Positions 3,775 to 47,885 are shown, numbered from the whole stretch's first letter. The stretch: 62,992 nt of DNA, filler included, from Asterionella formosa (GCA_002256025.1; 21 parts of 21 records of this genome joined end to end with filler, not necessarily neighbours in it); one strand, 5' to 3'. The notes: a model not told the origin generated them from the sequence alone. A program made the numbers and translations.

Positions 3775-3812
3775 CAATTCAATTCAATTCAATTCAATTC
3801 TGTTCTGTTCTG
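3775..3812. repeat. (CAATT)n(CTGTT)n microsatellite upstream of the PPR gene
   Basis: Read directly from the sequence. Confidence 0.8.
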
Positions 3813-3846
3813 CTCTATTCATTTATTTTTAAAGTAAGATAGATAA

Positions 3847-8654: not shown

Positions 8655-9090
8655 AGGATCCAGCATTCAATTCGATGCTAGAGGAGGAAAATCGGGCAAA
8701 ACAATTCATTATACCAAGAGCACATAATGACTTGATGGAATCTACTAAACTGGAGCCGCATGCATCTCAAGCAGCGCACACAACTGGAAGCATGTATACT
8801 TCTCTGAACAAGCAGTGAACAACAACTTTGGCACAAGCACAAGAACCAGCCAGCGCTCGATTCCATTCTCAAGGGCGCTGGATATTGGGCAAAACATTTC
8901 ATTAATTCCAAGCGATTACTATGACTCCATGAAATCCATCAAAATGGAGCCGGCTGCCACTCCAGATGCGAACAAGACAGGAAACATGCAAAAATCTCCG
9001 AATAAGTAGTGAAAAACACTATTGCAGCAAAAAGACCCAGCATTCGATCCCATTCTCAAAGAGGCAAAACGGGCAAAACATGTCAACAAG
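8655..9090 (+). repeat. Degenerate tandem repeat of about 190 bp (about 3 copies) within broken ORFs
   Basis: cagcattc...gggcaaaaca blocks at about 8661, 8851 and 9038. A (c/a)tggagccg block recurs at about 8750 and 8943. Confidence 0.55.
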
Positions 9091-12938: not shown

Positions 12939-15900
12939 TTACTCATTATGAGAATGATGCACATTTCCATCTTCCACAATTCGCCTTGCCAGGGATCCGG
13001 ATTTTGTTAGTCTCTTCCGATTGCGCATCACATTGTACGATTGAGCATAGTGGTAAAAAACATTTATCACTTGTTGCCACAACAATTCACCAGCACCAAA
13101 AGCAATACACAGTCCCCAATAGTTAGCATCAATTCCACCTTCAGCAACGTGAAAGGCAACACCTCCAAATTGGACAATAATTACTTGACAACCTGCAGTT
13201 CCAAACAAAATACCGCAAAAGATCCAATTGTCAAACATGCCAGAAAACACATTGTCTACATAGAGCAACGGAGGAAGGGGCAAGTTATTACCAAATGAAA
13301 ATGGCGAAACAAATCATTTCCATACCAAAACAAAAATTCTGAATACTTACGTTCTCCCTTCAGTTTTCGGCAATTAACTTCATTAAAAAGTTGCATCCAC
13401 ACAAATGAGTTGAAAATAATAGTATAGTGAACAGAATTGTCGCCATTGGCTTCTGCTACATTTCCTGGAGGCAGATCGAGAAGGTCAGGACCAGCGAACA
13501 GGAGTGTCATGACGATAATCAGTTGGTAGGCAGCATGTAAAAGCATGTTGGCCCACATTCGTTTGGTGATCATACTTTCAGTGCGATTCACAGGTGGCTT
13601 CTCCAAGAGGGCATCGACTGGGGGCTCGGTTGCCAAAGCCAAACCGGCTAAGGAATCCATGAGCAAATTGACCCAGAGCAATTGAATGGCTGCAAGAGGT
13701 GCGGATTGGTAAGCAAAGGCACCAGTCAAGGCTGTCACTACGGCGGCAACATTGACGGTCAATTGAAATTGCAAAAACTTTTGAATGGATGCATATACAT
13801 TCCTTCCCCACTTGGCAGCAGTTACGATTGACGCAAAGTTATCATCCAAAAGGATAATATCAGCTGCGTCCTTGGCAATTTGAGTTCCGGAGATACCCAT
13901 CGCAAACCCAATGTCGGATCTCTTGAGAGCAGGAGCATCGTTGGTACCATCACCTGTCATGGCAATGACCTGCCGATCTGGGAATATTACAATATTGTGA
14001 TCCTTCAAAAGTCGCTTGCATGCATCCCTGTCAGCATACAAGGTCGACTGGTTCAACCCGTGAGCCAATGTAAGCTTGTCGTCGGGGGAACTTCTTGCTA
14101 GAACACGCAAATGAGGCCAAATCTTGTCGAAAGCGGTTTGGTCAAATTCATCCTTGCCTGCTTCACCTTTTCGGTATACCTTGGACCTAAAATTTTTGCC
14201 TTCCATCATTACATTTTCCTTCAGATTCTCCGCTACCTTTTCTCCTGTGCCGTATTCCACAAAGTGTTCGTCTCTGAGAATTCCGGCTTGGTAGGCAATG
14301 CTCACAGCTGTGTTTGGGTTATCTCCAGTCACCATGCGGACATCAATACCAGCTCGGTAACATTTCTCAATGGCTGCAGGGACTTCATGACGAAGCGGAT
14401 CCTCAATGCCAACAAGTGCAACTGCCGTCAAATCTGTTTCAGCTTCGAGAGCTTGTGCTCCATCTGAATTCTTGACAGCTGTATGAAGCTGCTCCTAATC
14501 AAAGCCAGGCGGCAAATCGCGATAAGCTAATCCTAAACATCGCATACCACGACGTGAATACGTAATTGCGGCACTCTTATAAAGTTCTGACACAGCTGGT
14601 GTCAAGGGTTCAGTTGTCCCGTCAGGCAACATGTATTGAGTGCACCGATCGAAAATGACTTCTTGAGCACCCTTGGTGTAATGGCGATATCCACCACCGT
14701 CCCTTGGGACTGCCCAACTCATCATTTTCCGGGCGGAATTAAAGCCGAATTGTTTTCCCTCTGACAAAAAATCAGCCAAAGAGCCTTGTTCTGATCGTCC
14801 TCGTGTGGTATCCCGGATGGCCTTGTAGTCCAGTCCAAATTCATGCACCAACATCAAGAGTGCTACTTCGGTAGGATTGCCAATGGACCCTTCCAATTTG
14901 CCCTCCTTGTCCAGATACAAGGCTGTCTCATCCATAGTATTTATGGCAATGAGATTGCAAATTAAATCAATTGCTGCCTTGGATGCATTAAGTGACTTAA
15001 CAAAGTCTCCTAACAGGACGGTTGGGTCTGTCACCAAATAGTTCTTCATACCCATAAAAATAGCCCTTGCGGTCATTTTGTTGGCAGTTAATGTTCCTGT
15101 AGATGTAGAATGTGTGCATGAGTTTCGATAACAAAAACCATAAATCTGAAGCAATTGAACAACAACAATACATACCTGTCTTATCAGTACAAATGGTAGT
15201 TGCACAGCCCATGGTTTCACATGCATCCAAATGCTTGACCAAATTCTGATCCTTCATCATTTTGCTAGAGGAAAAGGCCAATGCCAGCGTAACTGCCAAG
15301 GGCAATCCTTCCGGTACGGCGACAGCCACGACAGTAATGGCAACAGTCAAGTAATTGACAATGTTTGAAATTGGATCTTTATTAATAGCCAATCCAATAA
15401 TGCACGATGCTCCAAAGGCACAAATGGCACACACACTCCCAATCAGTCCAATGATCTTTGCAATTATATCCATCTTGACAAAAAATGGACTATTGACATC
15501 ATCTCCTTGCAAATCATCGTCCTCGGATTCTCTGCTTTGATGAACGCGCGCCCGAATTTTACCACTGACTGAGTTTGGCCCAACTGCAATAACAATCATT
15601 TTGCCACTTCCTTGAATTGCCGATGTGCCACTCAAAACTACATCTCCAGGATGTTTAGCAATTAGCTTACTCTCCCCCGTCAAGGTACTTTCATCCACTT
15701 TCAAATCTGCCATGGGTCCAAGTACGACGCAATCAGCTGGAATGCTGGCCAAGTTATGAGAATTGACCGACACGATATCTCCGACGACAATGTCATCATC
15801 AATGATACTGACAGAAATTCCATTACGCAGCACGACCTTGGTGTTGGTTTCATGTAGGGACTTGGTCAAGGTCAAAAAAGCAAATTGTTTGGCATAATCA

Positions 15901-21205: not shown

Positions 21206-23190
21206 ACATGGAGTTGGTCAAGAGGTTTAGGTGAATTAATTATCTTAAAAATTCATATAAATGCTATTCAATTATTGAAGTAGACATACCAGTACTATAT
21301 TAGCTATATATTGAAATTTCACGAGGGGAAGCATAATATCAGTGCTTTCTGTATTAGGGTTGTATGGATGGGTGTGGTCTGCCCGAGGTAGAAGTCATTC
21401 TCGTGAGTACATTTTGTACTGACCAATTTTTAGGTGTCGGTTTGACCTAAAATTCAGGGTGTGAATAAGAAGGTCCACTATGATGGCGCTGGCTGGTGGC
21501 AGACAAGGAAAAAAGTAGCCAGCACAAGCAGCGCGAAAACTGCCAGGTATTTATTTCCTCTGTCCAGAATTTCTTGCTGGCACGATTTTCTCCAACTAAA
21601 TGCCTATTGTGAGGCAAGCCCCAAGTTACAGATCCATGCATGATATGTTATAAATATACATGTGGAAAGATCAAAATTGGTAAGTAGCTCTACATTTGAA
21701 GAAACATGTAAGTAGCTCTGCAAAGATTTGAGCATTTTCAGGATTTTTGTATCTTGCCAGAAAGGTAGATACACAAATATGTACTACTACTGTTGATATC
21801 NNNNNNNNNNNNNNNNNNNNNNNNNNNNNNNNNNNNNNNNNNNNTTAATTAATTAANNNNNNNNNNNNNNNNNNNNNNNNNNNNNNNNNNNNNNNNNNNN
21901 TTCACACTATCATTCCTTGGGAAAATTGCAGAACAATTCCTCCCTGCAGTGTCTTCAACTCGGACAGAGTCTGGTGTCACAATATCTCTTCTACTCGATT
22001 GTTGCCCAGAATCAAACACAATTTTTTCGGATAACTTTTGGATCCGTATTACTAGGACGTGGAAACTTTGCCACAGAAGAATGTCTAATAAAAGATTCAT
22101 TCGAAATGGGAGTTCTGTTTGAAGACTATTGGGAAACATTAGAACTTCCATTCTTATCTTCTTCAATATTAACTTTCTTGTTTTTAACAGAAATAATTGA
22201 TATGTTACATTCAATTTCTTTTGCATCAGCTTCAAAATCAAAATCTTTCAAAATATTTATGAACTGAATCATCGCTGTCGTCATGAAATGGATGATTATG
22301 GCCCATTGATTCAAAGATAGGACACATGATTTATTTTTGTCTACTCTCATCCCTAAATGCTGTGTGCAGTTACACTCACCTACAAATAGAAAACATCTAA
22401 TTCGTGTGATGCATCTTATAATGGCGATCATATGATCTTATCAATTCGATTTATCATCTAACATGAATAATATTTATCCTCTGAGAGAATATTACAACTA
22501 TATGTATGTATTTATTTTTACCATCACTGGCTGCAAACCATCAGCAACTGAATTTGAATCATTGGTGTTGCAATAGGACAGTCGTACATGGGTATATGTA
22601 CATATACGTACCTTATTATTGTAGAGAATAGATTTCCATATATTTACATATACATGTACGAGACTCCTTCTGTGTGAGCACTGGCTCTGGTAATGGTATA
22701 TATTGTGTGAGTTTGTTTCATCTATTGTTGTTGTACAGCAGGTACCGAAATGTTGTACAGATATTTTTGCAAGTAAACATACATAGACATTTGATTTGAA
22801 TTTAAATCATGTCCATCGTTGGGATACCTACTGGTACCAGGTACCAGTGCCGTATATAAAGAAAGCGTGCGTACCATATACAATTGATTTGAATTTAAAT
22901 CATGTCAATCACAGGGATAGGGTTAAGCTGAGGGAGTGGCTGAGAGTACCGGTACCAGGTACCTGGTAGTACGCAACTATCAGACGTTCTTCTCGTACAA
23001 ACAAGCAAGGTGATGTTGGTACCGGTACCTGTAGGTGATGTTGAGCATGCAATAACACGTCTCCTACAAACAAGGTGAGATTGGTACCTANNNNNNNNNN
23101 NNNNNNNNNNNNNNNNNNNNNNNNNNNNNNNNNNTTAATTAATTAANNNNNNNNNNNNNNNNNNNNNNNNNNNNNNNNNNNNNNNNNNNN

Positions 23191-28068: not shown

Positions 28069-29639
28069 AATACGTCACTTTACACATAAATTCGAAAAAG
28101 TGCCGTAAACGGCGTCTTAGATGTAGGCGCAAGCATTTCATGTGGCTGAATGCATTTGCATGTGATAGTGATATAAATACTGGATGCGAAAATTCTTAAA
28201 AATAATTTTGCGAAAACCAAACAGGGTAATCCGTGATCATAATGGTATATNNNNNNNNNNNNNNNNNNNNNNNNNNNNNNNNNNNNNNNNNNNNTTAATT
28301 AATTAANNNNNNNNNNNNNNNNNNNNNNNNNNNNNNNNNNNNNNNNNNNNAAGCCATACTAGCATTTAGGTACACAACAAGAACACACTCACCATTCAAC
28401 TGTATTGCAGAGTTCTTTTATTTGAGTCGAGGATTCAATTGACATTGCAGCAACCTATGCAGTTACAGAAACAATGAAAAGGAATGATTTGTTAGCTAGT
28501 AGTCATGTTACATTGAAACAACGACACGCAATTCCATCGTATCCTCTTGCTTCACTTACCACAAATCAATGCAACTAAGGATGCATAAGTCTGTAATAGT
28601 AACTTCTCAGTAAATTCTTGAATAAGTAAGTTTCGGGTATCCAATGTTGTCCAAAAGAACTTACTGGCTCATTTTTGTCAGCTTAACTTTGAGAGAAGTT
28701 AAACGTTTTGTTAGTTTTGTTCCAACAGAAGTGAATAGGTCCAACGAGCGACAAGAGCACTTACGCAATTTGGTTTTGTTTTACATTGGTGCTCCCCAAC
28801 AAGCGAAACGAGCTGTTGAATCAACTGAGAAAAAAGGAAATGTGGCTGCGTTTAGTTAACAATTTGTTGTTGTGCTGCCTGCCTCCCGACGATTGTCATC
28901 CAAGTACCACGCACATTGATGGCTTCATTATATTACCTTAAACATTCTCCATCCTTCGAATGCGCAATGTGTCGAAGTCACAATGTTTTTCATTATGTAT
29001 TGCGTAAACTTTCTTTGCTTCTCATGTGCTTTACTACAACGTATCTTTTCATGAAGCAGCAGGCATTGTTTGTTAACATGACAGAACGATTTCAAAAATA
29101 TATATGCCATGCATATAGAAATAAAATTTGTAAAAAAAAAATATATATATATTAAGTGTTATACATTTATAAAATTCAAAGGCGCTCTCGATATGGAACA
29201 TCTGATATGGTTGAGATGGCCATACTTGCATATACATAATTCGAAACTACTCAATCCACTATATGTCCATTGTTTTCCACGACTACGTGTACCGGAATTG
29301 TTTCTGGAATTTGTTTGCATCGATATTTTCTACGTCCGTTGAAACTAATTATTTAGACCGTTAAATAGCCGCCAGGGTTTTAGTAGCAAATTGTTTAAGC
29401 CCCTTTTTTGGTCGGGAGCTCTTCATGTGTACCGGTACATCATATGACAATAACAATATATCATATATATATACAGAGTACCAGTAGCAGGTAGTAAGTG
29501 ATATACTGGGGGTAGTCGGAGTAGTAAACTAGCAAAAGANNNNNNNNNNNNNNNNNNNNNNNNNNNNNNNNNNNNNNNNNNNNTTAATTAATTAANNNNN
29601 NNNNNNNNNNNNNNNNNNNNNNNNNNNNNNNNNNNNNNN

Positions 29640-30530
29640 AGTTTGATACAGTTTCAAAGCAGGGTCATTATCAAGATCCACATGGAGATACAGACGGTCA
29701 TAGCCCCATGACATCGTCACTATGTCCTCAAGACAGTGGACTAGGGCCTTACCAATCTTTCTCCCACGGTACTTTTCGTGGACACAAAGATTACTCAAAT
29801 AAGGTTGCAAGTCTTTGGCAGCTGCTCCCGATCCAAATCCCACCAATGAGGCAATTCTTCTCTCGACTTTATCGATCCATGGATAGCTGAATGGAATCTT
29901 AGCATCGCATGGCTGCAAGCGCAACTCTACGGTCGCAATTACATCAATGTGCCAATCTCTACTGGGTCGAGCAAGAGCCAAAACCAGGGAATGTCGTTGG
30001 GCCTCATCAAGTTTCTCGGCTCGGGAAGCACCACTCAACGGAGGCGGCATCAGGTCAGGATTCTCTATCCGGTCTTTTGTTCGACTGACGAGACCAGAAA
30101 GGACTTCGGCGTAGGCTATCATACCTGAGTAGGCATTCAAAGCCAAAACCGACGGCTGCACCAATGCACGCTCAAAAGCATTCAGTTCCGAACTGAGGGA
30201 AATTGCTTCTGCTCCAAACGAGGCAACGATAAATTTTGATACATCCGGCAAATCCTTGTATTGGACAAGGCAGAGCGTGTAAGTTTCATCGTCGTCGTCG
30301 CCAACTAGCCTGCCTTGGTAATCCAGGCAATATCGAGTGTCGAAGGGATCAGAGACGAAGGACAAGGCAGAAGAAAAACGTGCAAGCGGCACCAAGTTCA
30401 GCTGATGCTGCTGAGCCCTAGCTAATTTCACGGAGTTTCTTACAGCATTCTGCAGCGTTGACTGCAAGAAGGCAGTTGAGTCAGAAAACAAGATCAAACA
30501 TAAGAAAGGAGAAGTAAGACGCCTTTTCAT
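29640..30530 (-). CDS. GNAT acetyltransferase with predicted plastid bipartite leader, 3'-truncated
   Basis: Signal peptide ending STA-F. GNAT motifs YLSNLCVHEKYRGRKIGKAL and LYLHVDLDNDPALKLY. Confidence 0.85.
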
Positions 30531-30971
30531 ATTTAAGTTCATGTATTGTTTTTCGAGTGGTTGGCCTTGTGTGATTTTAAATGTCAAGGGATCACTTTCA
30601 ACGTTGCCACTAATTCAAGACAGGTAACTATTGACTCTAACGGTGTTCGGGACCTGGTACTGGTTGTGTTATCAAATACTGATTGTCGACTCGGTGAAAT
30701 CATAACAATCGTTTTCTTGTTTCTGACACAATGCACAAATATGTCGTCTAACTCTCGGAGTAGTACCCTGGTACCCTGGTACTGGAGTACCAGGTACCAG
30801 ACCTACTCAAGTGGTAGAAGTGTATACCNNNNNNNNNNNNNNNNNNNNNNNNNNNNNNNNNNNNNNNNNNNNTTAATTAATTAANNNNNNNNNNNNNNNN
30901 NNNNNNNNNNNNNNNNNNNNNNNNNNNNTTCCATTCAATAGAACATAAAACAATTGACAATAGACGAATTC

Positions 30972-32052
30972 ATGCTCATCTTCGCTTCTCTCGTTGTGGC
31001 ATTTTGCTGGGCCTGGTCTGCTTCCGCCGCTCCTGCCAACCCTGCTGGTCATGTATACACCCAGCCGGATGGATCTCTTACTCCCACGATCTTCTTGAAC
31101 GGAAACCAGCATTACGCCTGGCTCTCTGACGCCAAGGGATACACAGTTTTAAAGGACGAGCAAGGCTGGTATGTGTATGGAAAGAAGGAACAAGGCGACA
31201 TTGTATCGGCCGGTCTCCGCGTGGGTCACGCAAACCCAAAGAAGCTCGGATTGGTTCCCACGTTACAGCACGACGATGCGCTCCGCCGGGGACTTGTTCA
31301 TGAACACGAAACAGAGCACCGTAAGCTGATCGCTGTCCCCGAGAAGACGCTCTGCAACTTTCAGGGAAGTTCTCAAAATCCTTGCAAGTTGAAGGGTCTG
31401 GTTGTTTTGGTTCGATTCAAGAGTCATGCTAGCCGAGTGTTGCCATCGCCTAGTGAATACGATATCTTGTTCAACAACAAAGGGCCCACACAAGACGCCA
31501 CAGCTCCTACTGGCTCGGTCGCAGATGTGTACTTGGAAAATAGTTACGATACCTTCGTCATGCAGGCCGTCGTTTCTGACTGGATCCCCATATCGAAGAC
31601 AGAAGCAGAAGCTGTCGACGGTAACCTTGGTCTTAACAGGCCCGGGACACAGGCAGCATGGAAAGAAGCGGTGACCATGGCTAAGGCCCAGTTTGGTTCC
31701 TACAAGCAATTTGACGCCGACGGTGATGGTGCATTTGATTTGCTGGTAATAATGCACTCTGGTACAGCGGCGGAATGTGGAGGTATTGACATTGAAACCC
31801 TAGGTGACTACAGTACTCGCATTTGGTCTCATGCTACTTCGACTCCATGGTATTCGGATGCAGATGTCAAAGTCGGACGGTTTTATGTGGCTTCTGGAGT
31901 TTGGGATATCACTACCCTGAGTAAAACGCCGTATACCAAATGGGGAATCGCCCGTATTGCTGTGATTGCTCACGAGTGTGCCCACTTTTTGGGACTTCCT
32001 GATTTGTACGATACAGTTGGAGGAGCTGGTATTGGAACTTGGTGTCTTATGG
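30972..32052 (+). CDS. Secreted M6-family (immune inhibitor A-like) metalloprotease, exon 1, truncated
   Basis: Signal peptide, YTQPDGS pro-region, LVVLVRF, GSVADVYLENSY, FDADGDG, HECAHFLGLPDLYD zinc motif, GIGTWCLMG. GTACGT donor at about 32053. Confidence 0.88.
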
Positions 32053-32680
32053 GTACGTATTGTATTGATTACTTTCGTGAAATGGTTGCAGATGGCAACA
32101 ATTCGTGTGCTAACAAGNNNNNNNNNNNNNNNNNNNNNNNNNNNNNNNNNNNNNNNNNNNNTTAATTAATTAANNNNNNNNNNNNNNNNNNNNNNNNNNN
32201 NNNNNNNNNNNNNNNNNTTTAGTGAATGACTATGAGCGAAAATGCTATTTAAATGTAGAAATGGCACAGTATCTAGTGTCACTAGATAGACTTCGACTTT
32301 TTGGCAGGTTAATGTCGTGTACAGCAGTCATGATTTGCCAAAGGTAATGATATTCCACGTTTTTTTTGCAGTAGTACGATTCCTGGCAATATCCATACGA
32401 GTCATCTGACGGCTGCTGGTATGCTATTTGTTTTAACACTCATCTATTGATGAGGTATATGGCGATACTATCTTGTCATAACACTCATCTATGATGTTAC
32501 TTGATATGTTTTGTGGCGATAGTATTGTTTCATTGCCCCATGTGTATGTATACTTAGGTCGGCGTGAACTAATTGCACAAAGACATGATGTTTACAAATA
32601 ATAGTCTCTTTCTTCTTCCTGCAGTTGCTTCTCATTCCTTCGAGTATCACCAAACACAATTTGTAAGTCGTATGATTGTA

Positions 32681-34795
32681 TTAGTCAACCTTCTTCTCTT
32701 CCCAATTGGCCATCTTGGAGAGATCAGGGTGGCTCTCTCGTCTTGATCCGTTCGTCAGTGTGCACATTGGCCTGCGGCAACAAGCCACATAATGGGGAAT
32801 CGGGACTCCCAACAACTTGCGCTGGAAGCGAGCGACTGTGATACTGTACTTATCAGGAGAAAATACCTTGGAGGTGATAACTTCACGGCTCTTAGCCTCA
32901 ATTCGAACACCGTCCTGTTTGTACCACATGTTGATCAAAACGTCCTTGACAGAGTTGCCGGCCACAGTGTATGTATCAAAATCAGCAACGATCAAGCGGC
33001 CTTCGGTAGACATTAAAACCTTGGCAGATTCCAAGGCTTCTTCCCACTTGGGGATCATACTGAGGGAATAAGAAAAAGTAATCACGTCGAATCCCCGGGT
33101 AAGGTCATTTCGAAGATGAGGGGCCAACAATGCACGAACATTGTGTGAGTTGATGTCGAGACAGACCCAACGGATCTTTTCACATTGGGCAGGAGAAAAA
33201 GTCTTGCGGGCATTCACTTCACCAATGGCTAACAATTCAGGGCAGATATCCAAGACAACAATACGCTCGAACAAGTCAAGTTGCGCTTTCAGGAAATGAA
33301 CGTTGCGGCCTGTTCCGCCGCCGACATCGAGCCATGTGTGGCCTCGCTTGATTGGTCCAAAGGAAGACATCATTTCAGGACGAGCAACAAGCATATTCTC
33401 ACGAACTGCATCGTATCCCTTGGCTTGGGATGCGTAGAAAGAAGACATTTTGTCTCCGTGTGCGCTGACCTTTCCAGCAGTCAAAGGATGCAAGATCATC
33501 TTTGTGGTTGTCTTCAATTTTCGAGCGAACGACGCCTTTTGGCAGGGAGATGGTTCTGGGTCTACCCATGGGAGGGCATCCTTGGGCATGAATGACATAA
33601 AGGTGCCAGGGTACATCTTCACACGGTCCTTTGAGTACCACTGAGGCGACATGTCTTCGATATCAAGGTTGTTAAAAAATGGCTTGTCGTCCATCTTGGT
33701 AAAGGCCGAACGCCATAGAATCTTAGCCCCGGGAACGGTGGCTCGTTGAAGGGCGATCCACTCGTCATGAACAATGCTGTTCGGCATCCAGTCCATGTGA
33801 TCGAGAAGGATAAGCTTGGTGAATGAGTGAGGTTTGACTCTTTCCATGGTTGCTTGTACAGTCGCGTGATGCCATTCGAAGCAGCCAGCGTTGTCCTTGA
33901 GGGCTTGGAAATGTTCCTTCATTAAAGTACGAGGACAGCAACTCTGATCTTTGTACCCCTTCTCGTAGTAAAATCTGTAAAAGTAGTTGTGGGCCCCAAA
34001 CTCAGGGTCAAGGAAAATCTCGCGAAGAATGCCTTCATAAAACTCAACGGTGTAGAACTCCGGTCCAATCTGGTTTTTTGGAACACCTGCAAATGGTGCC
34101 AAAATTCCAGGAAAGAGCACTCTAAACCACCATGCGGATCGCTCAATCATGTGGTAGTTCTTGGTAATGTACTCATGAGAAAAACCGGTCTTGGACCACG
34201 CCTTGATATCAAAGCCAACAACATACATCAACCAAGGAACAAGGAACTTGGCAGCGAATCCAGTAGATCCCGAGTTAGCAAATCCTTTGCGAAAGGTTGG
34301 CTCAATCCTTGGGTCCCACCACTTGCGTGCCTGTCCACTCATGGTATGGCGCATTCGTTTCCAGACCTTGCAGGCCACCGTCGAGTCCGACGATCCCCAA
34401 ATGGCCCACCACTCGTCGTGAGTGAGTTCTGGGTCACGCAACATCCTGATCTTGAGTTCAAAGAGGTACAGCTGGTGCTGGTTCATGTCGCAGACAACAA
34501 TCTTGGCAGGTCCTTCAATGGCATAGTCGAGCACAATATCTCCTGCGGAACAGATGCGGAAGATGACATCGTCCTTGGAAATCTTGAGGATTTCCTTGTC
34601 GACAGCTGGGTCTTCCCAGCAAATGTTGTAAATGTAGGTGCGGTTGCAGATGTGCTCGATCATGTCGAATCCGTTCTTGAGGGTGCGATAGAGAACAAAA
34701 AGCCCCCCAGCTCCAAGAACACACCAAGTAGTAGGCGACTGGAAATCGATGCTAGCAAAAGCCGCAATGGCCCTTTGCTGGATACCTTCGAACAT
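32681..34795 (-). CDS. BTA1: Bifunctional betaine lipid (DGTS) synthase: N-terminal TM, BtaA/DUF3419 domain, C-terminal BtaB-like methyltransferase
   Basis: BtaA motifs YNICWEDPAVD, CSAGD, CDMNQHQLYLFELK, LDHMDW, WRSA, DRVKMY. BtaB motifs FYASQAKGYDAVR, WLDVGGGTG, FDVITFSYSLSMIP, VADF. Intronless, 704 aa. Confidence 0.9.
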   Translation of the reverse strand: MFEGIQQRAIAAFASIDFQSPTTWCVLGAGGLFVLYRTLKNGFDMIEHICNRTYIYNICWEDPAVDKEILKISKDDVIFRICSAGDIVLDYAIEGPAKIVVCDMNQHQLYLFELKIRMLRDPELTHDEWWAIWGSSDSTVACKVWKRMRHTMSGQARKWWDPRIEPTFRKGFANSGSTGFAAKFLVPWLMYVVGFDIKAWSKTGFSHEYITKNYHMIERSAWWFRVLFPGILAPFAGVPKNQIGPEFYTVEFYEGILREIFLDPEFGAHNYFYRFYYEKGYKDQSCCPRTLMKEHFQALKDNAGCFEWHHATVQATMERVKPHSFTKLILLDHMDWMPNSIVHDEWIALQRATVPGAKILWRSAFTKMDDKPFFNNLDIEDMSPQWYSKDRVKMYPGTFMSFMPKDALPWVDPEPSPCQKASFARKLKTTTKMILHPLTAGKVSAHGDKMSSFYASQAKGYDAVRENMLVARPEMMSSFGPIKRGHTWLDVGGGTGRNVHFLKAQLDLFERIVVLDICPELLAIGEVNARKTFSPAQCEKIRWVCLDINSHNVRALLAPHLRNDLTRGFDVITFSYSLSMIPKWEEALESAKVLMSTEGRLIVADFDTYTVAGNSVKDVLINMWYKQDGVRIEAKSREVITSKVFSPDKYSITVARFQRKLLGVPIPHYVACCRRPMCTLTNGSRRESHPDLSKMANWEEKKVD

Positions 34796-35410
34796 GGCGT
34801 CGTCTGTGTGTGCTGGTTCTGTAGTTAGTGTGAAGGAATGAGGGGAGGGGAGGAGTGAGAGAAAGAAGTGAGAGAAGAAAGGCAGGAGAACAATCCGACC
34901 GGAAAAGGTCCACTCGACGAAAAAATGCGTTTTTTGCTACAGCAATGCGGTACGTAAAGCCAGCAGAAGCCTAGTCTTGCTTCTCCGTGGTTGCTTTGGC
35001 TTGAAGCACTCGTAACTCCGAGCCTCCCCGTTGCCATCTGCGCCATGCAATGCTTCCATACGGATCAGGTGCAAGTCCTACTTCCAACAGCAGCGGCATG
35101 GCGTACCTAACAGTGAAAACAATGGAAGCTACAAACAACGAATGGTTCAGCTTGTGGGTGCGATTTTCACGTTTGAACTTTGGCGGTGGAGGCAGGAGGA
35201 GAGAGGGACGAGGGAATGCTACGTGGGTTTGGACCCGCTTGTTTGCCTGACGATCTAAACGAGTACCTGGTACTGGTACAGGGTGGGTCCCAGTATCACG
35301 GTATACCAGGTAGCAAAGTAACAAAGTGAAGGCAGGCGGTGGCTGGGAACCTGTGGTATGCGCTTTACGACAAGGATAGGTTAGCGTACAACTTGCAGAC
35401 GATCAAGTTT

Positions 35411-35441
35411 CGAATCTTTCTCGGCTTGGACAACGAATCTG
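35411..35441. promoter_or_regulatory. Two putative PSR/PHR-type phosphate-starvation boxes (CGAATCTT, CGAATCTG)
   Basis: Exact and near match to the YGAATCTH motif I recall for the diatom Myb factor PSR, about 620 bp upstream of BTA1. Confidence 0.5.
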
Positions 35442-36341
35442 CCTATNNNNNNNNNNNNNNNNNNNNNNNNNNNNNNNNNNNNNNNNNNNNNNNNNNNNNN
35501 NNNNNNNNNNNNNNNNNNNNNNNNNNNNNNNNNNNNNNNNNNNNNNNNNNNNNNNNNNNNNNNNNNNNNNNNNNNNNNNNNNNNNNNNNNNNNNNNNNNN
35601 NNNNNNNNNNNNNNNNNNNNNNNNNNNNNNNNNNNNNNNNNNNNNNNNNNNNNNNNNNNNNNNNNNNNNNNNNNNNNNNNNNNNNNNNNNNNNNNNNNNN
35701 NNNNNNNNNNNNNNNNNNNNNNNNNNNNNNNNNNNNNNNNNNNNNNNNNNNNNNNNNNNNNNNNNNNNNNNNNNNNNNNNNNNNNNNNNNNNNNNNNNNN
35801 NNNNNNNNNNNNNNNNNNNNNNNNNNNNNNNNNNNNNNNNNNNNNNNNNNNNNNNNNNNNNNNNNNNNNNNNNNNNNNNNNNNNNNNCCCAAAGTACGAC
35901 CCTGGTACATGGTGAGTTCCTGCAAGTTGCGGTCATTTTGCTTAGGTAAATAATCAATTTAATATGGGATAAAGATAGCTAACGTTTTAGTTTCAGCACA
36001 ATTACCGGAACTTGCTGGTACTGGTACCAGGTACCCGTACGTAACAGGGTCAAATGGGATGGAAGGAATACATGGTACCGGTACCAGGTTCTCCTTCACA
36101 TGTACCATTGCAAGTGCCAATGGACCTAGTACCCGGCTATTTATGCGGTACCAAGTATGTACTCGTTGCTGTGTTGGTTTTCGATACATCATTGTTAACT
36201 GACAGTACTCCGGAGTGTACGTCGTAATAATACAAAGTCTGTGGAATACGGTATTTTAGTTTCGTAACTGGTAAGTAAGTACCATTGGTAATGAGATGTA
36301 CCCGTATTTGTTTTCTACCACATGCACCAAGGAAAAACTGG

Positions 36342-36387
36342 TAGATTCAGATTCGAGTTCCAATCGAATCTTTCTCGCTTGAATCTG
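36342..36387. promoter_or_regulatory. Four putative PSR/PHR-type boxes in 46 bp (TAGATTCA, CAGATTCG, CGAATCTT, TGAATCTG)
   Basis: Two reverse and two forward GAATCT cores, about 720 bp upstream of the tri-domain gene. Confidence 0.55.
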
Positions 36388-37102
36388 CCTGATAGGTCGT
36401 TCATGCTTGGGAGTGAAGAGTCATCGTAGCACGTACTAAGTAAGCTCCTAAAAATTGTTCAGTAGGAGCCTATGTACCATATCATACCATTCACTACCAA
36501 ATACCAGGTACCAAATGTCGAAGCCGCGACAACACCATCCAAGTCGCTCCGACGTGACCACCTCGTCAATTCTTCCATTCTGCCTGCGTCCTTGCTTCGT
36601 CCTCGCCTGCCTATGTACCGGTACTGGTAGCTGTAATCGGAATGACAGCAAGACGAAGGAGAGTTCATATGTACTGTATGCACTGGTAGTAAGCTAGTTA
36701 TGGTGCGTGGCTGAGCCAGAAGATACCAGGGTAGGTACTAACTTATATGTATGTAGTGTGTAGCATGTGGTACCTGGTACCAGGTACCGGTGCCAACATA
36801 GTGTACCGGTACTGGTACCACGTACTTTTTTCTTCTACCAGGTAATCCACGAGGGTACTGGTACTAACTACCAGGTTCCTGGTGAACTTTTGTACTCACC
36901 TATTCGTAGTACACATGCATTTGTAAGGAGGACAGGCAAATGCGAAGAATGCCCTCGGCGAAATCGACGACTCAGCAAAATTACCGGTACTTGATCAAGC
37001 AACGGCCCAATGATCCACAGATCCTTACTACCACCTTGTGATCAATTGTTGTCATTGCCGTAAATTAGCTACCCGTACGAACCACAGCAACAAGATATCA
37101 AG

Positions 37103-38872
37103 ATGAGCCCCAAGGTGTTGGCGTCGTCTCCGTACTCCCTATCGGGTATCTTCGTGACCAAAGCCGCTTACAAGCAAGTCGCTTCAGAATTTCATCCATT
37201 CCATCGCCATGACCTGAATGCTTTCCTTCACTTGTGGACCACGGGACTCGGCGTTTGGGGTGCTGTTCAGCTTGCCATGCTGTATGATTGCGAATACGCT
37301 GTTTACGCGTATGTTACTATTATTGCTTTGACTTGCCCCCTCCTTACTTCCACCCTGCACACCATGATCATTGCTGCCTTCATCACGGTGCCATCGCTCT
37401 CCTACAAGGCTGTGCCGGTGGAATTCGACTCGTTATACATCTGTCTTGCCGCCATTGTCCTTGGATACGGCCTGCAAGACTTGGCTCACTACGTATGCAT
37501 GGAACCTACCTACATGGGATCCTACATTGGCGCGAAACCGTACATGCTCGTTATCCATTCCATTTGGCTCTTGCCACTCGTTATTGACTCGGTCCTCATC
37601 CGTTATTGCTTCTTGCCAAACCTTGTCACTCGCAACCGAAATGTAGTCACGCAAGTTTCCTCGAAGAAGAACCTAGATGAGCTTCGCACATGGATACATT
37701 CTAATGTTCCGGAATCAAAGGAAACGACGCACATTTGGCCGCACAACCAACCGGGAACATCCACCAATGTAAAGAACCTGGAAGACGACGCTGCCATTTA
37801 CGCGGGCTTTCGAAAAGTTTTCGCAGCCAAGCATTTTGATATCAGGCCCATTCAGGGAATGAATGAAATTTATATTACAGCGGTTGGATCCAAAAAGGAA
37901 ATCAACTCGGATGCTGTTTTTTACACTCCACACGTCGATGGTCCCTACTGGTGGTTACCCGGGGCATCCACCTATCGTTTCCTGGTAGGCGTTACTCCCA
38001 ATGAAATGGTACGCACTCGATTCAACTTGCAACACGAGTCTCAAGATCATGTCTTGTCAATGTATGATGTCATTGGATTTGATTACAACCGAGAACTTCA
38101 TTGGATCGATCATGTTCCTGGCAAGGTCAACAAGGAGCGGCGATCCGTCATCAAGCTACACTACGTGGTCTACCCCAAGGGATGGCATCGTTATGGAGAT
38201 TTGGTAGCTAACTTGAACCAATCGTACAATACTTGGGCTAGAGGAAACTTTCTCAGAACACTTCGTCCAGCTGGCATGTATGAGTATGCAATGGCCTGGT
38301 GGATTTGGTTGACGACCTGGTTCAATGCTGGCTTTGAAGAATACATTGGTTGGTCCAATTTTGTTTATGTGGCTGCTGCGTATTCCCTGGGACCCAAGCC
38401 ATTTTTAATTCTAACATCATTCCGGCACTACATGGTGTACATGACCACCTTTGCCTTTCGCGAACCAATGGTGGCTCATGGATACCTTATGCGGGATGCC
38501 AAGTTGTACAAGACTATTGCACTGGCTCACCTCGGAAAACGTCTTCTGCCTTTGATTGCTCTTCCTCGTGATATTGTGGGAGTTTCCATGGCTGTCCTTG
38601 GATTTTCGATCACCATACTGGCCACCGCCCGTCTTGGATTTGTTCGCACCTATTTTGGATCAGAATTGGGATTCGTGAAGCCCAAGTGGATTGAAGGATT
38701 CCCTTATGGTGTTATTCCTCATCCCATGATCGTTGGGCAGCTGGTGGCCTACTCATCCATTTTGTTTTGGTGGAAGGATGTCATGGCCAAGGAAACTGCC
38801 ATGTTGATTGTGACACACATGACCTTTTACACTGCTCACATGATTCAGGAAATGCTCACGTCCAGCTACTAA
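37103..38872 (+). CDS. Multi-pass membrane protein: Mpo1/DUF962-like domain + HxD..H oxygenase-like domain + PEMT/Opi3-like methyltransferase domain
   Basis: N-terminal FHRHDLNAFLH..LQDLAHYVCMEP (Mpo1 pattern H-x4-N-x3-H..Q-x3-H..E). Central FYTPHVDGP..FDYNRELHWIDH..R..KLHY. C-terminal LGFVRTYFGSELG..GFPYGVIPHPMIVG (PEMT-like). Intronless, 589 aa. Confidence 0.75.
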   Translation: MSPKVLASSPYSLSGIFVTKAAYKQVASEFHPFHRHDLNAFLHLWTTGLGVWGAVQLAMLYDCEYAVYAYVTIIALTCPLLTSTLHTMIIAAFITVPSLSYKAVPVEFDSLYICLAAIVLGYGLQDLAHYVCMEPTYMGSYIGAKPYMLVIHSIWLLPLVIDSVLIRYCFLPNLVTRNRNVVTQVSSKKNLDELRTWIHSNVPESKETTHIWPHNQPGTSTNVKNLEDDAAIYAGFRKVFAAKHFDIRPIQGMNEIYITAVGSKKEINSDAVFYTPHVDGPYWWLPGASTYRFLVGVTPNEMVRTRFNLQHESQDHVLSMYDVIGFDYNRELHWIDHVPGKVNKERRSVIKLHYVVYPKGWHRYGDLVANLNQSYNTWARGNFLRTLRPAGMYEYAMAWWIWLTTWFNAGFEEYIGWSNFVYVAAAYSLGPKPFLILTSFRHYMVYMTTFAFREPMVAHGYLMRDAKLYKTIALAHLGKRLLPLIALPRDIVGVSMAVLGFSITILATARLGFVRTYFGSELGFVKPKWIEGFPYGVIPHPMIVGQLVAYSSILFWWKDVMAKETAMLIVTHMTFYTAHMIQEMLTSSY

Positions 38873-39105
38873 TTAATTATAGAGGAAAACGTAAGAAAAT
38901 ATGAAACCTGGCGATTCACATATCCGAGGTGGAGTGATGATTTTATGGACACGGTACCATGAAATTCATTAAAAGTAATTACACTATAAGAAAATTCTAG
39001 CGTTAAGCAGCTTTTCCGCCCGATCAATGTATAGTCCATAAACTGCAGGAAAATCGGCGACACTGGTGCAGACGTCTAGTGGCAGATGCAGACAACAATT
39101 TAATT

Positions 39106-40290
39106 CTATGAATCCATCATTCGCATATGTGTAAAGACATCTTCCTTCACCATTGGGCTTTTATCGGGCGTGAGAAATGTTTGAACCATCTTTGCTGCGT
39201 CATCCAATATTGCTACTTCCTCCTTGCTCATGGACCATGCCAAGGCTCCATAATTTTGTGTGACTTGATCGATGCTCCGAGCACCGGGAATTGGAATGGT
39301 ATCCTTTGCCCGTGTCCAGTTGATAGCCACTTGCGAAAGGGTTGCACCAGGGTGATGCGAGGCAACAATTTTCATAGTGTCCAATAAATTCTGATAGTCT
39401 GGTGTTGTCAAGAGTTGCTCAAAGATGATCTTGCGAGGACCTGAGGGCATTTTCTCTAGACTGTACTTGCCTGTCAACATACCAAGTGCAAGCGGACTAT
39501 ATGCCAACACTTTAACATTGAGATCCTTGCAGGCTTGGAGCAGTCCATTCTGTTCAGGCCATTGATACAACAATGAGTACTGAATTTGATTTGTAGCCAA
39601 CGGAATGCCTCGTTCGGCCAAAACTCCATGACAGGCTGTCATGGCTTCCACACCGTAGTTGCTCACTCCGACAGCTTTGACAAGCCCCTTCTCATAGCAT
39701 TGTGCAAGTCCATCCCAATACTCGGTGTTGGACCAAGCATTCGGAAAATGAATTTGATACAAATCAATTGGCCGTCCGATTCGTTTCACCGATGCTTCAC
39801 AATGCTTTACGACATCGTCAGCCTTGGTATAAAAGGGAAGAGGCGCAAACTTGCTAGCAATCTGCACCTTGTCGGCACAGTCCTTACTGAATTGGCCTAA
39901 AAGCGATTCACTTCGACCCAGTCCATAGAGTTCCGCTGTGTCAAAAAGTACTTTTTGGGTTTGTTTCTGTTCCACCGCAAAGTCAAAGACGCGGCGAAGC
40001 TCGTCGTCTTCTTTTGGGTTGTAGCCCCAAAAGAAGGAATCTCCCCACGCCCAAGCTCCGAGTCCCATTTCTGGAAGGTCAATGGTTGACGCCACCTGTG
40101 ATGATGCTGCGGCTGCTGCAGGAGGAAGCGCTTGAGTCCAAGGCGACAAAACTACCCCAGCGACGACGGCTGTAGTCAAAAATTCACGACGGCTGTGGAG
40201 TGCTGAGTGACATTTGTCATTTTTATTTTTCAGCGCAGTAAAGGCATTGGCACACGCCAAGAAAGAAGCAGCAAGGACGGTAAATCTCAT
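39106..40290 (-). CDS. Plastid-targeted aldo-keto reductase (pyridoxal reductase-like)
   Basis: MGLGAWAWGD, FDTAELYG, IDLYQIH, AVGVSNY, NQIQYSLL, AYSPLALG, PIPGA. Leader ANA-F then SRREFL plus a hydrophobic stretch. Likely ATG at 40290. Confidence 0.9.
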   Translation of the reverse strand: MRFTVLAASFLACANAFTALKNKNDKCHSALHSRREFLTTAVVAGVVLSPWTQALPPAAAAASSQVASTIDLPEMGLGAWAWGDSFFWGYNPKEDDELRRVFDFAVEQKQTQKVLFDTAELYGLGRSESLLGQFSKDCADKVQIASKFAPLPFYTKADDVVKHCEASVKRIGRPIDLYQIHFPNAWSNTEYWDGLAQCYEKGLVKAVGVSNYGVEAMTACHGVLAERGIPLATNQIQYSLLYQWPEQNGLLQACKDLNVKVLAYSPLALGMLTGKYSLEKMPSGPRKIIFEQLLTTPDYQNLLDTMKIVASHHPGATLSQVAINWTRAKDTIPIPGARSIDQVTQNYGALAWSMSKEEVAILDDAAKMVQTFLTPDKSPMVKEDVFTHMRMMDS

Positions 40291-46043: not shown

Positions 46044-47885
46044 TGTTTCAAATTTCGAACTGTTCGTTTATCAGTTGATAAAATAAGTTGTGGAGTAGCC
46101 TCTTGCTTGTTGCTTGTTGTTTGCTGTTTGCTGTTGGCCTACTGCTTGGCTTTCTGTATTGTTGACGTCTTGCTAATGTGAAATGAGTAAGTCAGGGCCA
46201 GTGATGCAGTGAATAATTGTATAATATTTTAGTTTTATGGGCGGTCATGCGAGGAATAATAACAGGAGTTTGGTCGTTCCCGTTTCAGCGATGTGTTTTA
46301 TTGGTGGCGTGTTCTGTTTCAAGTCCGTTTCAATTTTTTCGTCTGGAATGATCTCATGTGCATTCTACCTGGTACCTGGTACCTGGTACCAGGTATCTGG
46401 TACATACCCCTGGCTGGTATCACATCTGGCTTATCATACACGTATGCATACGAAGGTGCGCGTCTGGGATCGAAATGATGACGTTGGTGCAAGTTTTTCG
46501 AAATATTTCAGTGGTATCGCCCATACATAGTAATAAATGCCAGTGTGATGATCCAGAAATACCGGTTTATGTTCGCATCATCCACGATCGAATAAGAACA
46601 GCCAAAAATGATAATGATGTAGGTACCGGGGGTATGTACGAATAAAGCAGGAAGGAGACGACATTTTGTTACTGCTGTACCGGTAGTCGGTCTTTCCTGC
46701 TGGCGTAAATGCTGCTGCTGGCATTTCTTCTTTTATGATTTCTTCCCAACGCACCACCACACCAGCNNNNNNNNNNNNNNNNNNNNNNNNNNNNNNNNNN
46801 NNNNNNNNNNNNNNNNNNNNNNNNNNNNNNNNNNNNNNNNNNNNNNNNNNNNNNNNNNNNNNNNNNNNNNNNNNNNNNNNNNNNNNNNNNNNNNNNNNNN
46901 NNNNNNNNNNNNNNNNNNNNNNNNNNNNNNNNNNNNNNNNNNNNNNNNNNNNNNNNNNNNNNNNNNNNNNNNNNNNNNNNNNNNNNNNNNNNNNNNNNNN
47001 NNNNNNNNNNNNNNNNNNNNNNNNNNNNNNNNNNNNNNNNNNNNNNNNNNNNNNNNNNNNNNNNNNNNNNNNNNNNNNNNNNNNNNNNNNNNNNNNNNNN
47101 NNNNNNNNNNNNNNNNNNNNNNNNNNNNNNNNNNNNNNNNNNNNNNNNNNNNNNNNNNNNNNNNNNNNNNNNNNNNNNNNNNNNNNNNNNNNNNNNNNNN
47201 NNNNNNNNNNNNNNNNNNNNNNNNNNNNNNNNNNNNNNNNNNNNNNNNNNNNNNNNNNNNNNNNNNNNNNNNNNNNNNNNNNNNNNNNNNNNNNNNNNNN
47301 NNNNNNNNNNNNNNNNNNNNNNNNNNNNNNNNNNNNNNNNNNNNNNNNNNNNNNNNNNNNNNNNNNNNNNNNNNNNNNNNNNNNNNNNNNNNNNNNNNNN
47401 NNNNNNNNNNNNNNNNNNNNNNNNNNNNNNNNNNNNNNNNNNNNNNNNNNNNNNNNNNNNNNNNNNNNNNNNNNNNNNNNNNNNNNNNNNNNNNNNNNNN
47501 NNNNNNNNNNNNNNNNNNCTTTAGGGACGCGAATGTAATCTGGATCATGTCACCTAATGGCATACAGAAGAACCTCACCTGAAAGGAACAAAGAGCAATT
47601 CATGTCAGCAACATATTTGAGCTTACATGTTTCAAGCAAACTACTTTCGTTTTGATTTACAGTGAAGCACACAGTTGTCTACCAGTATTAGCTTAGAAAC
47701 TAATTCTAGCCATTTCTACCATATGAGTACCATTGGAATATTGTAGTAGTATCGCAACTTACGTACCGGTATACTAAGTATTGCACAGGATAAAACTATA
47801 AATACGTGGGTGTATCATTGACAGATAACCGGTAAGACTGTTCAATTGAGTCACAATGATTTATCATTCACAATTGGATTTTAAC

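Follow-up and report, generated by a model that had tools for sequence, protein, structure and literature searches.

A conserved partner of the betaine lipid synthase gene BTA1 in diatoms and bacteria encodes a three-domain candidate head-group-remodelling enzyme

Two genes in the diatom Asterionella formosa diverge from one intergenic region. The window, by which we mean the whole stretch of DNA analysed, is 62,992 nucleotides long, filler included. Its minus strand encodes, at 32681..34795, a BTA1-type betaine lipid synthase of 704 residues with BtaA followed by BtaB, identified by its ORF, Pfam matches, orthologues and RNA-library contigs. The plus strand encodes, at 37103..38872, a predicted three-domain membrane enzyme of 589 residues, here called TRI, which is supported by its ORF, homologues, an AF2 model (pLDDT 86, pTM 0.80) and RNA-library contigs. 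Head to head, the genes flank 2307 bp (34796..37102), a shared divergent promoter region bounded by the ORF ends. RNA-library contigs end at about 35136 on the BTA1 side and begin at about 36995-37115 on the TRI side. A contig of 2313 nt covers 32824-35136 and another of 1840 nt covers 37115-38954; these contigs are colinear with the window and ungapped, which supports both genes as intronless. Contigs of both genes occur in the same four RNA-library runs, and the contigs carry no expression levels. An earlier, sequence-only reading had described two diverging intronless genes, BTA1 and a tri-domain partner, which ORFs, domains and colinear contigs bear out. The assembly gap that it placed between the genes is confirmed as a run of 441 N at 35447..35887, inside the promoter region.

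BTA1 itself is ordinary when set against known DGTS synthases. Its BtaA domain (residues 51-400; 33596..34645, minus strand) matches Pfam DUF3419 with an E-value of 1e-66 over profile positions 7-382 of 385, and the same chain carries a BtaB-like SAM-dependent methyltransferase domain (residues 480-612; 32960..33358, minus strand), matched by Methyltransf_23 (E 7.6e-11), Methyltransf_12, Methyltransf_25, Methyltransf_11 and UbiE-type entries. The gene therefore has both domains found in BtaA and BtaB of Rhodobacter sphaeroides and in fused eukaryotic BTA1, and the order of the two is the one that excerpts of PMC10685587 describe for marine organisms. Orthologues in other diatom contigs are 70-76% identical. 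The excerpted text of PMC6642084 gives a P of 2e-106 for the match of Rhodobacter BtaA to DUF3419 and treats this family as a predictor of DGTS. The window protein would be expected to convert diacylglycerol and S-adenosylmethionine to DGTS, a betaine lipid free of phosphorus, as is known for its family. The novelty lies in its constant partner, TRI.

TRI has 182 homologues at E <= 0.001 and 613 representatives. Its N-terminal helical membrane domain (about residues 20-175; 37160..37627, plus strand; helices spanning 13-174) is probably Mpo1-like, as suggested by weak to moderate matches to PF06127 in 16 of 41 relatives at E <= 0.05 (best E 2.6e-5). The window protein itself gives this assignment little support, with no PF06127 match at E <= 0.1 in Pfam; scores of 18 bits for the cyanobacterial protein and 16.5 bits for that of Shewanella fall under the cut-off of 24. 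Five residues, F30, H34, H43, H129 and E134, do not vary across 41 sequences, and at least 90% of these have H152. Conserved histidines in a helical membrane domain are likewise found in yeast Mpo1 and PF06127 members, and the chemistry of Mpo1 is Fe(II)-dependent alpha-oxidation. The TRI domain differs from yeast Mpo1 in being fused to two more catalytic domains, in the lack of a significant match for the window protein, and in its proposed substrate, a betaine head group rather than a 2-hydroxy fatty acid.

Residues 175-381 (37625..38245, plus strand) form a double-stranded beta-helix domain resembling 2OG/Fe(II) oxygenases. VIA gives Z scores of 11.9-9.3 over about 160-190 residues, and all 50 matches listed are 2OG oxygenases or such folds, including AviO1 (Z 11.9) and ColD, a viral prolyl hydroxylase (11.8). 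Foldseek finds AndA and PHD2 with E-values of about 7e-4 to 3e-3. The residues of the HxD...H iron triad, H277, D279 and H333, are the same in all 41 TRI sequences, those of bacterial type included. R347, K351 and H353 occur in at least 90% of the 41, and R347 and K351 are candidates for the basic residue that would bind the C5 carboxylate of 2OG. Spacing suggests H333 rather than H353 as the distal iron ligand. Fold and triad are common to TRI, the AviO1/EvdO orthoester synthases, prolyl hydroxylases and PhyH. Unlike known 2OG oxygenases, the TRI domain lacks a sequence-family match: no Pfam 2OG family is recognized on the window protein or its 41 relatives, and no PDB sequence matches the TRI family profile at E <= 1. 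The domain sits between two membrane domains, and its cofactor use is putative. By function its nearest counterparts are perhaps the gamma-butyrobetaine and trimethyllysine hydroxylases, which act beside a trimethylammonium group.

The C-terminal helical domain (residues 385-589) contains a PEMT/ICMT-like membrane methyltransferase core at residues 491-579 (38573..38839, plus strand), recognized by PF04191. The match to the window protein is marginal (30.3 bits; cut-off 25), and 41 of 41 family members score above that cut-off. Two motifs, RTYFGxELG and PHPM(I)xG, are invariant, and a conserved HP-containing motif is likewise found in PEMT/Opi3 and ICMT. TRI is not a stand-alone, small PE-methylating orthologue of PEMT/Opi3; it has 589 residues and two extra domains, and the match covers 491-579 only. 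Its genetic context also differs from that of PEMT/Opi3, being betaine-lipid rather than phosphatidylcholine synthesis. The proposed module would follow the same concept as the ornithine-lipid enzymes OlsC, OlsD, OlsE and OlsG, which belong to an unrelated lipid class: once a membrane lipid free of phosphorus has been made, these hydroxylases and a methyltransferase tailor it. The Ols enzymes are separate single-domain proteins, whereas TRI places three predicted activities on one chain.

The sequence-only reading had proposed a check of synteny in other diatoms, and the pair is indeed found there. TRI orthologues were located in 25 metagenome loci, nine of them informative in having at least 1.3 kb upstream. 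BTA1 lies head to head with TRI in six of these nine (L006, L010, L015, L016, L020 and L021). Two of the six, L010 and L021, apparently come from one species, so that five species are represented and five of six other species keep the pair. TRI of these five is 58-76% identical to the window protein. A mis-join across the gap in the window is unlikely, because the same head-to-head order occurs, without a single N, in all five. The remaining loci, L002, L003 and L023, belong to one species by TRI identity and have a PP2C/ankyrin gene upstream of TRI in place of BTA1. Comparison of the 164 six-frame ORFs of at least 80 aa in the window with the diatom loci gave matches only for ORFs overlapping BTA1 or TRI, the sole exception being one 29-aa match in L025.

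The shared promoter region contains clustered copies of the hexamer GAATCT. A motif scan located four GAATCT/AGATTC sites within 36343..36386 (36343 and 36349 on the minus strand, 36366 and 36381 on the plus strand), the only cluster in the 63 kb of the window with at least three sites spaced 100 bp or less. Two further plus-strand sites, at 35412 and 35435 (35412..35440), abut the N gap in a stretch similar to 36360-36392. GAATCT occurs in clusters in all six diatom BTA1-TRI intergenic regions, with 3-6 copies in each. The total of 31, against 5.4 +/- 2.3 expected, was reached in none of 2000 simulations, and the hexamer ranks first among 2080. Clusters also occur 5' of TRI where BTA1 does not adjoin it (L002, L003, L023), and in L024. 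Excerpts of PMC13729311, citing Sharma et al. 2020, report GAATCT as the recognition motif of the phosphate-starvation regulator PtPSR. BTA1 and TRI would be read outward from a common promoter with PtPSR-type sites, and because GAATCT is clustered there, the pair may be switched on together when phosphate is exhausted.

Bacterial TRI genes stand in rows on one strand with the genes for DGTS synthesis. A cyanobacterial MAG (L048) has DUF3419, methyltransferase, TRI and MFS genes separated by 26, 29 and 0 bp; Shewanella surugensis (L053) has DUF3419, methyltransferase, a TRI of permuted domain order and patatin; and a Spirochaetaceae MAG (L049) has DUF3419, methyltransferase and TRI. Such btaA-btaB-TRI rows thus occur in three phyla and at three of five informative bacterial loci, with btaA and btaB as separate genes, unlike the fused BTA1 of the window. 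The Myxococcota MAG and Asanoa have btaA on a different contig from TRI. BtaA (PF11899) is present in five of five TRI-bearing bacterial genomes, against a background of 7 of 301 genomes sampled from the order of the Shewanella genome. TRI turned up once in each of two genome samples, one of 301 and the other of 401. It is dispensable for DGTS synthesis, as six of the seven BtaA-bearing genomes of one sample had no match to the Shewanella TRI query. Protein P0213 (1231 aa) resembles TRI 172-585 over its residues 166-573 (E 1e-49) and BTA1 51-675 over residues 592-1231 (E 1e-37), with Pfam DUF3419 and methyltransferase domains; it fuses TRI to BtaA-BtaB, although as a single predicted protein it could be a merged gene call. 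Judged by these sequence comparisons, the linkage of BTA1 and TRI is not chance and is conserved outside the A. formosa genome. The nomination of the partner as a candidate head-group-remodelling enzyme co-regulated with BTA1 gains support from the synteny, the rows in three phyla, the five-of-five co-occurrence, the fusion and the GAATCT clusters of the shared promoter.

Named TRI homologues come from diatoms, Ectocarpus and chrysophytes, including an MMETSP entry labelled Ochromonas, lineages reported as DGTA makers. Others come from dinoflagellates (Effrenium, Prorocentrum) and Chromera. In dinoflagellates DGCC is dominant rather than DGTA, and the dinoflagellate homologues count against DGTA as the product. 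Choanoflagellates and alveolates, for which the legend to Figure 6 of PMC10685587 records BTA1, also have homologues. The name Phaeodactylum, the standard DGTA producer, is absent among the 120 of 182 matches listed. An alignment-free ESM Atlas look-alike cluster (feature score 0.96) has Chlorophyta as its commonest known phylum, by which DGTS-only green algae could carry a TRI gene. Both observations weigh against the DGTA reading. None of 21 giant-virus TRI-like genes has BtaA within 10 kb, and none of seven giant-virus BTA1 genes has TRI within 8 kb. These viral loci, together with diatom loci L002, L003 and L023 and those of the Myxococcota MAG and Asanoa, lack adjacency and count against the module.

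With moderate confidence, we read BTA1 and TRI as a conserved betaine-lipid module in which TRI would remodel the head group of the lipid made by BTA1, the most likely product being DGTA, the isomer that diatoms accumulate. We infer the substrate, product, mechanism and regulation of TRI from its domains and from the linkage, fusion, co-occurrence and motif clusters. In excerpts of PMC10685587 the DGTA enzyme is unidentified and nothing is known of DGCC synthesis, in agreement with the background on which the earlier reading drew, and our literature search found the TRI enzyme named in no searchable paper. DGTA depends on Bta1 in Cryptococcus according to excerpts of PMC6383925, and published labelling, as paraphrased in other papers, indicates that DGTS becomes DGTA by losing its original carboxyl group and gaining a new one. 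TRI appears to join an Mpo1-like Fe(II) dioxygenase, a 2OG/Fe(II) oxygenase and a PEMT-like SAM methyltransferase; two oxygenase-type domains and a one-carbon transferase would fit a carboxyl replacement and so support DGTA as product. The Mpo1-like family, moreover, takes its name from the oxidative decarboxylation of 2-hydroxy acids. A more specific and tentative proposal, to which we give somewhat less credence, is that TRI is the DGTA synthase, a single membrane enzyme that would remove the original carboxyl of DGTS and build a new one on the adjacent carbon; the new carboxyl might start as a methyl group derived from SAM and be oxidised thereafter. Counting against DGTA is the methyltransferase domain, for which a simple isomerisation offers no obvious task.

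TRI might instead tailor the betaine lipid toward DGCC or toward DGTS bearing a hydroxyl or another modification, or start DGTS turnover, for example by oxidative demethylation or decarboxylation. We regard this as unlikely, if a serious alternative. The linkage ties TRI to BtaA and BtaB and to no single product, and the homologues in dinoflagellates and Chromera would suit it. The elemental make-up of DGCC is that of DGTS plus one oxygen, an addition that would fit an oxygenase, but its choline acetal skeleton is hard to derive from a homoserine chain. Thalassiosira replaces PC with DGCC (PMC5835749), whose synthesis goes unexplained in the excerpts of PMC10685587. A non-DGTA product is opposed by the presence of the family in brown algae and chrysophytes, which are known for DGTA, and a purely catabolic role by the placement of TRI in biosynthetic gene rows.

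It is improbable that TRI is a PE/PC N-methyltransferase or a general fatty-acid or sphingolipid enzyme, tied to BTA1 only through phosphate-stress regulation. The Pfam PEMT match, the source name 'phosphatidyl-N-methylethanolamine N-methyltransferase' of the Seminavis, Chromera and Monosiga proteins, and the 2-hydroxy fatty acid oxidation in the Pfam description of Mpo1 speak for such a role, but the match is a marginal one of 30 bits over 89 of the 589 residues, and the database names are automatic transfers. Same-strand rows with btaA and btaB in three bacterial phyla, the fusion and the five-of-five co-occurrence would be unexpected for an enzyme of PC synthesis, whose induction at phosphate starvation would oppose lipid remodelling. 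Least credible of all is that the adjacency in the window means nothing for function and arose by an accident of descent or an error in scaffolding; the 441-N gap and the loss of the pair in one related diatom favour it, yet the head-to-head order recurs N-free in five other species in which all other neighbours differ, and bacterial rows and a fusion protein exist.

TRI, as partner of BTA1 in the proposed module, is a strong candidate for the long-missing betaine-lipid head-group-remodelling enzyme. Excerpts of PMC4796936 record DGTA in marine bacterial fractions and state that its synthesis 'awaits further characterization'. If TRI is the DGTA synthase, its bacterial versions would account for that DGTA, and DGCC might be the product of the diverged copies that dinoflagellates and centric diatoms carry.

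Two genes diverge from a 2307 bp intergenic region that contains an N run at 35447-35887. The first, BTA1, is encoded on the minus strand at 32681-34795 (704 residues); its partner, TRI, is encoded on the plus strand at 37103-38872 (589 residues). BTA1 residues 51-400 match DUF3419 (PF11899; Pfam, E 1e-66), and residues 480-612, C-terminal to that domain, match SAM-dependent methyltransferase domains (Pfam), which bears out the sequence-only reading of this gene as a BtaA plus BtaB betaine lipid synthase. Rhodobacter BtaA matches DUF3419 with P 2e-106, and DUF3419 is described as predictive of DGTS synthesis, in a passage of PMC6642084; a passage of PMC10685587 gives BtaA-then-BtaB as the domain order of marine organisms. 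Because DUF3419 is the BtaA family and the domain order is that of marine organisms, the gene is predicted to encode an ordinary BTA1-type betaine lipid synthase.

Both genes are covered by contigs of four RNA-library runs from three studies, which show the presence of transcripts and carry no expression level. The contigs are colinear, ungapped and 95-100% identical to the window; those over BTA1 end near 35136, and those over TRI start at about 36995-37115. This layout supports two separate, intron-free transcription units, in line with the two intronless genes of the sequence-only reading. An aldo-keto-reductase-like ORF at 39106-40290 on the minus strand is convergent with the 3' end of TRI (region 38852-39300), and a single RNA-library contig of 3400 nt (record 6 of contig set X1) spans the 3' ends of both. 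Another contig set, X3, has one low-depth joint from 38037 to 39102, with depth 38.7 vs 820. ORFs that flank the region at 29592-30542 (minus) and 30972-32165 (plus) both reach further N gaps, and their translations end in X runs; several scaffold gaps therefore lie near the locus.

A scan of metagenome contigs identified 25 loci with a TRI orthologue, nine of them with at least 1.3 kb of upstream sequence. BTA1 lies upstream of TRI, on the opposite strand and at 70-76% identity (tblastn), in six diatom loci (L006, L010, L015, L016, L020 and L021), with intergenic distances of about 0.9-2.9 kb. L010 and L021 show identical figures and were therefore counted as one species. Three further loci, L002, L003 and L023, are without BTA1 upstream; they carry the same TRI protein (99.5-100% identity) and so represent one species, in which a PP2C/ankyrin gene occupies the upstream side of TRI in place of BTA1. 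The head-to-head pair, whose synteny the sequence-only reading had named as a check, is thus retained in five of the six other diatom species. The species with the pair are, in turn, similar to Seminavis, Fistulifera and Nitzschia; the window TRI is closest to that of the araphid Thalassiothrix. A mis-join at the window gap is disfavoured because the diatom loci compared contain zero N. Among 164 six-frame ORFs of at least 80 residues in the window, only those overlapping BTA1 or TRI have matches in the diatom loci, apart from one 29-residue match in L025; the conserved part is thus the pair alone. L025 itself, a metagenome contig of 1539 nt, matches TRI residues 202-312 at 61% identity, abutting a 29-residue reductase-like piece (93% identical) from the ORF downstream of TRI in the window, and could be either a chimeric contig or a copy that has been rearranged.

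A passage of PMC13729311, citing Sharma et al. 2020, gives GAATCT as the hexamer bound by the Phaeodactylum phosphate-starvation factor PtPSR. GAATCT occurs three to six times in each of six independent BTA1-TRI intergenic regions, 31 times in 9.5 kb, where 5.4 +/- 2.3 are expected and none of 2000 first-order Markov simulations of those regions reaches 31. Of the 2080 strand-collapsed hexamers, GAATCT alone is present three or more times in every one of the six regions. The sole cluster in the 63-kb window of at least three sites spaced by at most 100 bp lies at 36343-36386. Clusters are also found 240-340 bp upstream of TRI in the one species that lost the BTA1 adjacency, and in L024, another of the TRI loci. 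Clustered sites in shared intergenic regions point to a promoter through which phosphate starvation would induce BTA1 and TRI jointly.

The last 40 bases before the N gap, 35406-35446, resemble the GAATCT-bearing stretch 36360-36392, about 950 bp on (tcgaatctttctcg...gaatctgcct), and repeated promoter modules may account for the assembly break at the gap. Short pieces of RNA-library contigs from other loci fit 35919-35942 and 36766-36788. A second hexamer, GGTACC, occurs 51 times in the window where 5.5 are expected, a count that 0 of 100 shuffles attain; most copies belong to closely packed GGTACYGGTACC-like units in non-coding DNA, for example at 2212-2282, 22741-23088, 36023-36819, 46371-46390 and 56910-56951. 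GGTACC appears to be a short motif, dispersed or in tandem, that is found across the genome; we rejected GGTACC-rich repeats as a feature of the BTA1-TRI promoter, the enrichment being window-wide.

The TRI family comprises 613 representatives at E<=0.001, many of them full-length, at 32-47% identity. Scanned with a Myxococcota member as query, prokaryote genomes yielded seven loci. In a Prochloraceae cyanobacterial MAG (L048), DUF3419 (7987-9186), a methyltransferase (9213-9947), TRI (9977-11788) and an MFS transporter (11789-13063) follow one another on one strand, with gaps of 26, 29 and 0 bp. Shewanella surugensis (L053) has DUF3419 (1216-2391), a methyltransferase (2375-3004), TRI (3028-4773) and a patatin-like lipase (4843-6000), again on one strand, and a Spirochaetaceae MAG (L049) has DUF3419, methyltransferase and TRI in the same arrangement. 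Same-strand btaA-btaB-TRI rows thus occur in three bacterial phyla. In the Myxococcota and Asanoa loci btaA is not adjacent to TRI, and two more contigs are too short to judge. Conversion of DGTS to DGTA is said, in a paraphrase in PMC6383925, to involve deacylation and reacylation, which a lipase beside TRI would fit.

Co-occurrence extends the link beyond adjacency. PF11899 is found in all five TRI-bearing bacterial genomes vs 7 of 301 genomes sampled from the order of the Shewanella genome. TRI is rare, occurring in 1 of those 301 genomes and in 1 of 401 from the cyanobacterial phylum, both already-known genomes. With the Shewanella query, no TRI match came from six of the seven sampled genomes that bear BtaA; TRI is accordingly an optional extra in DGTS synthesis. 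A database protein of 1231 residues, P0213, joins the two genes: residues 166-573 align to TRI 172-585 (33% identity, E 1e-49) and, eighteen residues on, residues 592-1231 align to BTA1 51-675 (E 1e-37), with DUF3419 and a methyltransferase recognized by Pfam. P0213 may be a merged gene call rather than a true fusion; even as a merged call it would add a lineage in which the genes are neighbours on the same strand.

The sequence-only reading credited TRI with three lipid-enzyme-like domains, and each finds a counterpart here. Residues 491-579 match a PEMT-type methyltransferase (30.3 bits vs a cut-off of 25), the sole Pfam match in TRI and one found in all 41 family members of an alignment of diatom, other protist and bacterial-type sequences. 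An AlphaFold model built with 28 homologues is confident (pLDDT 86, pTM 0.80): both end domains, the N-terminal one at about 13-174 and the C-terminal one, are helical, and the domain between them is rich in beta structure. The middle domain, 175-381, matches AndA and PHD2 at E about 7e-4 (Foldseek), and in an independent search (VIA) all 50 listed rows, Z 11.9 to 9.3, belong to the 2OG/Fe(II) oxygenase fold class, the fold that this domain is accordingly modelled to have. H277, D279 and H333 are invariant in the alignment, and R347, K351 and H353 occur in at least 90% of its members; the invariant three correspond to the HxD...H pattern of these oxygenases. Neither TRI nor its 41-sequence set matches a Pfam 2OG family, and a PDB sequence search with the TRI family profile gave 0 matches, for which reason the domain is placed, from sequence, in a branch that has diverged. 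Of the three assignments, that of the N-terminal domain is the least secure: 16 of the 41 relatives match Mpo1-like (2-hydroxy-palmitic acid dioxygenase; Pfam, best E 2.6e-5), the window TRI itself is without that Pfam match, and F30, H34, H43, H129 and E134 are invariant. Domain order is permuted in Shewanella surugensis (oxygenase, PEMT, Mpo1-like) and in Asanoa too (tblastn), which shows that the trio stays together even when its order changes.

Textbook producers of DGTA are diatoms such as Phaeodactylum, brown algae and Ochromonas. Homologues of TRI were named from the best 120 matches listed per search, in searches that depend on shared words. Among these matches are diatoms (Seminavis, Nitzschia, Fistulifera, Mayamaea, Thalassiothrix and a divergent Leptocylindrus copy), chrysophytes and synurophytes (Hydrurales CCMP1899, whose entry carries an Ochromonas taxon id, Epipyxis, Mallomonas, Chromulina and Paraphysomonas), the brown alga Ectocarpus fasciculatus, the chlorarachniophytes Norrisiella and Amorphochlora, the dinoflagellates Prorocentrum and Effrenium, Chromera velia, and the choanoflagellates Monosiga and Choanoeca. 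Chlamydomonas, Nannochloropsis and fungi are not named among the best 120 matches listed, which, in searches of this kind, does not imply absence. Dinoflagellates hold mainly DGCC; since they carry TRI homologues, the TRI product may differ between branches of the family. BTA1 is reported from choanoflagellates and alveolates in a passage of PMC10685587. Among ESM Atlas look-alikes, found by feature score and not alignment, Chlorophyta are the commonest known phylum in one cluster (0.96); giant viruses are commonest in a second (0.83), which is a lead only.

TRI-like genes do occur on 21 giant-virus MAG contigs (L026-L046), at 28-34% identity, and many of the encoded proteins match no more than the oxygenase part (about residues 170-430), sometimes together with the methyltransferase part. 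BtaA was not found in the flanks of these 21 genes (tblastn; custom BtaA profile), nor TRI in the flanks of seven viral BTA1 loci; the giant-virus contigs examined show no BTA1-TRI adjacency.

When phosphate is scarce, betaine lipids substitute for phospholipids in phytoplankton and marine bacteria, and so shape the phosphorus need of ocean life. To our knowledge, DGTS is the only one of the three betaine-lipid classes with known genes. The sequence-only reading took the enzymes for DGTS-to-DGTA conversion and for DGCC to be unidentified; a 2023 account agrees, a passage of it describing the DGTA enzyme and mechanism as unknown and DGCC synthesis as wholly uncharted (PMC10685587). Full-text searches on DGTA synthesis, limited to main texts, found no paper naming an enzyme, searches on btaA/btaB operons and DGCC biosynthesis turned up none either, and identifiers of genes beside BTA1 in Phaeodactylum led to no paper. 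The view given in passages of PMC10685587 and PMC6383925, which paraphrase Vogel and Eichenberger 1992, is that DGTA forms from DGTS as the DGTS head group is decarboxylated and recarboxylated. Passages elsewhere state that Cryptococcus DGTA requires Bta1 (PMC6383925), that DGTA of unknown origin occurs in marine bacterial fractions (PMC4796936), and that DGTS and DGTA are isomers poorly separable by mass spectrometry (PMC7074452).

Neighbourhood in diatoms, same-strand rows in three bacterial phyla, the fusion protein and co-occurrence all tie TRI to BtaA/BtaB, and the case is joined by the putative phosphate-starvation promoter that the pair shares. Together with two oxygenase-type domains and a one-carbon transferase, these ties give the profile expected of the missing head-group remodelling enzyme. 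It is very probable that TRI acts in betaine-lipid metabolism; that its product is DGTA we consider roughly an even chance. Speculatively, one TRI domain would remove the old carboxyl group of DGTS, with CO2 or an oxidised SAM methyl group as the source of the new one, the order of steps being equally speculative. The TRI domains are individually of known kinds; their combination and the betaine-lipid link are not described in the literature searched. With a concrete candidate to work on, the question of the missing DGTA enzyme becomes testable. If the proposal is true, TRI would indicate an unusual head-group chemistry and would serve as a genetic marker separating DGTS from DGTA producers in metagenomes.
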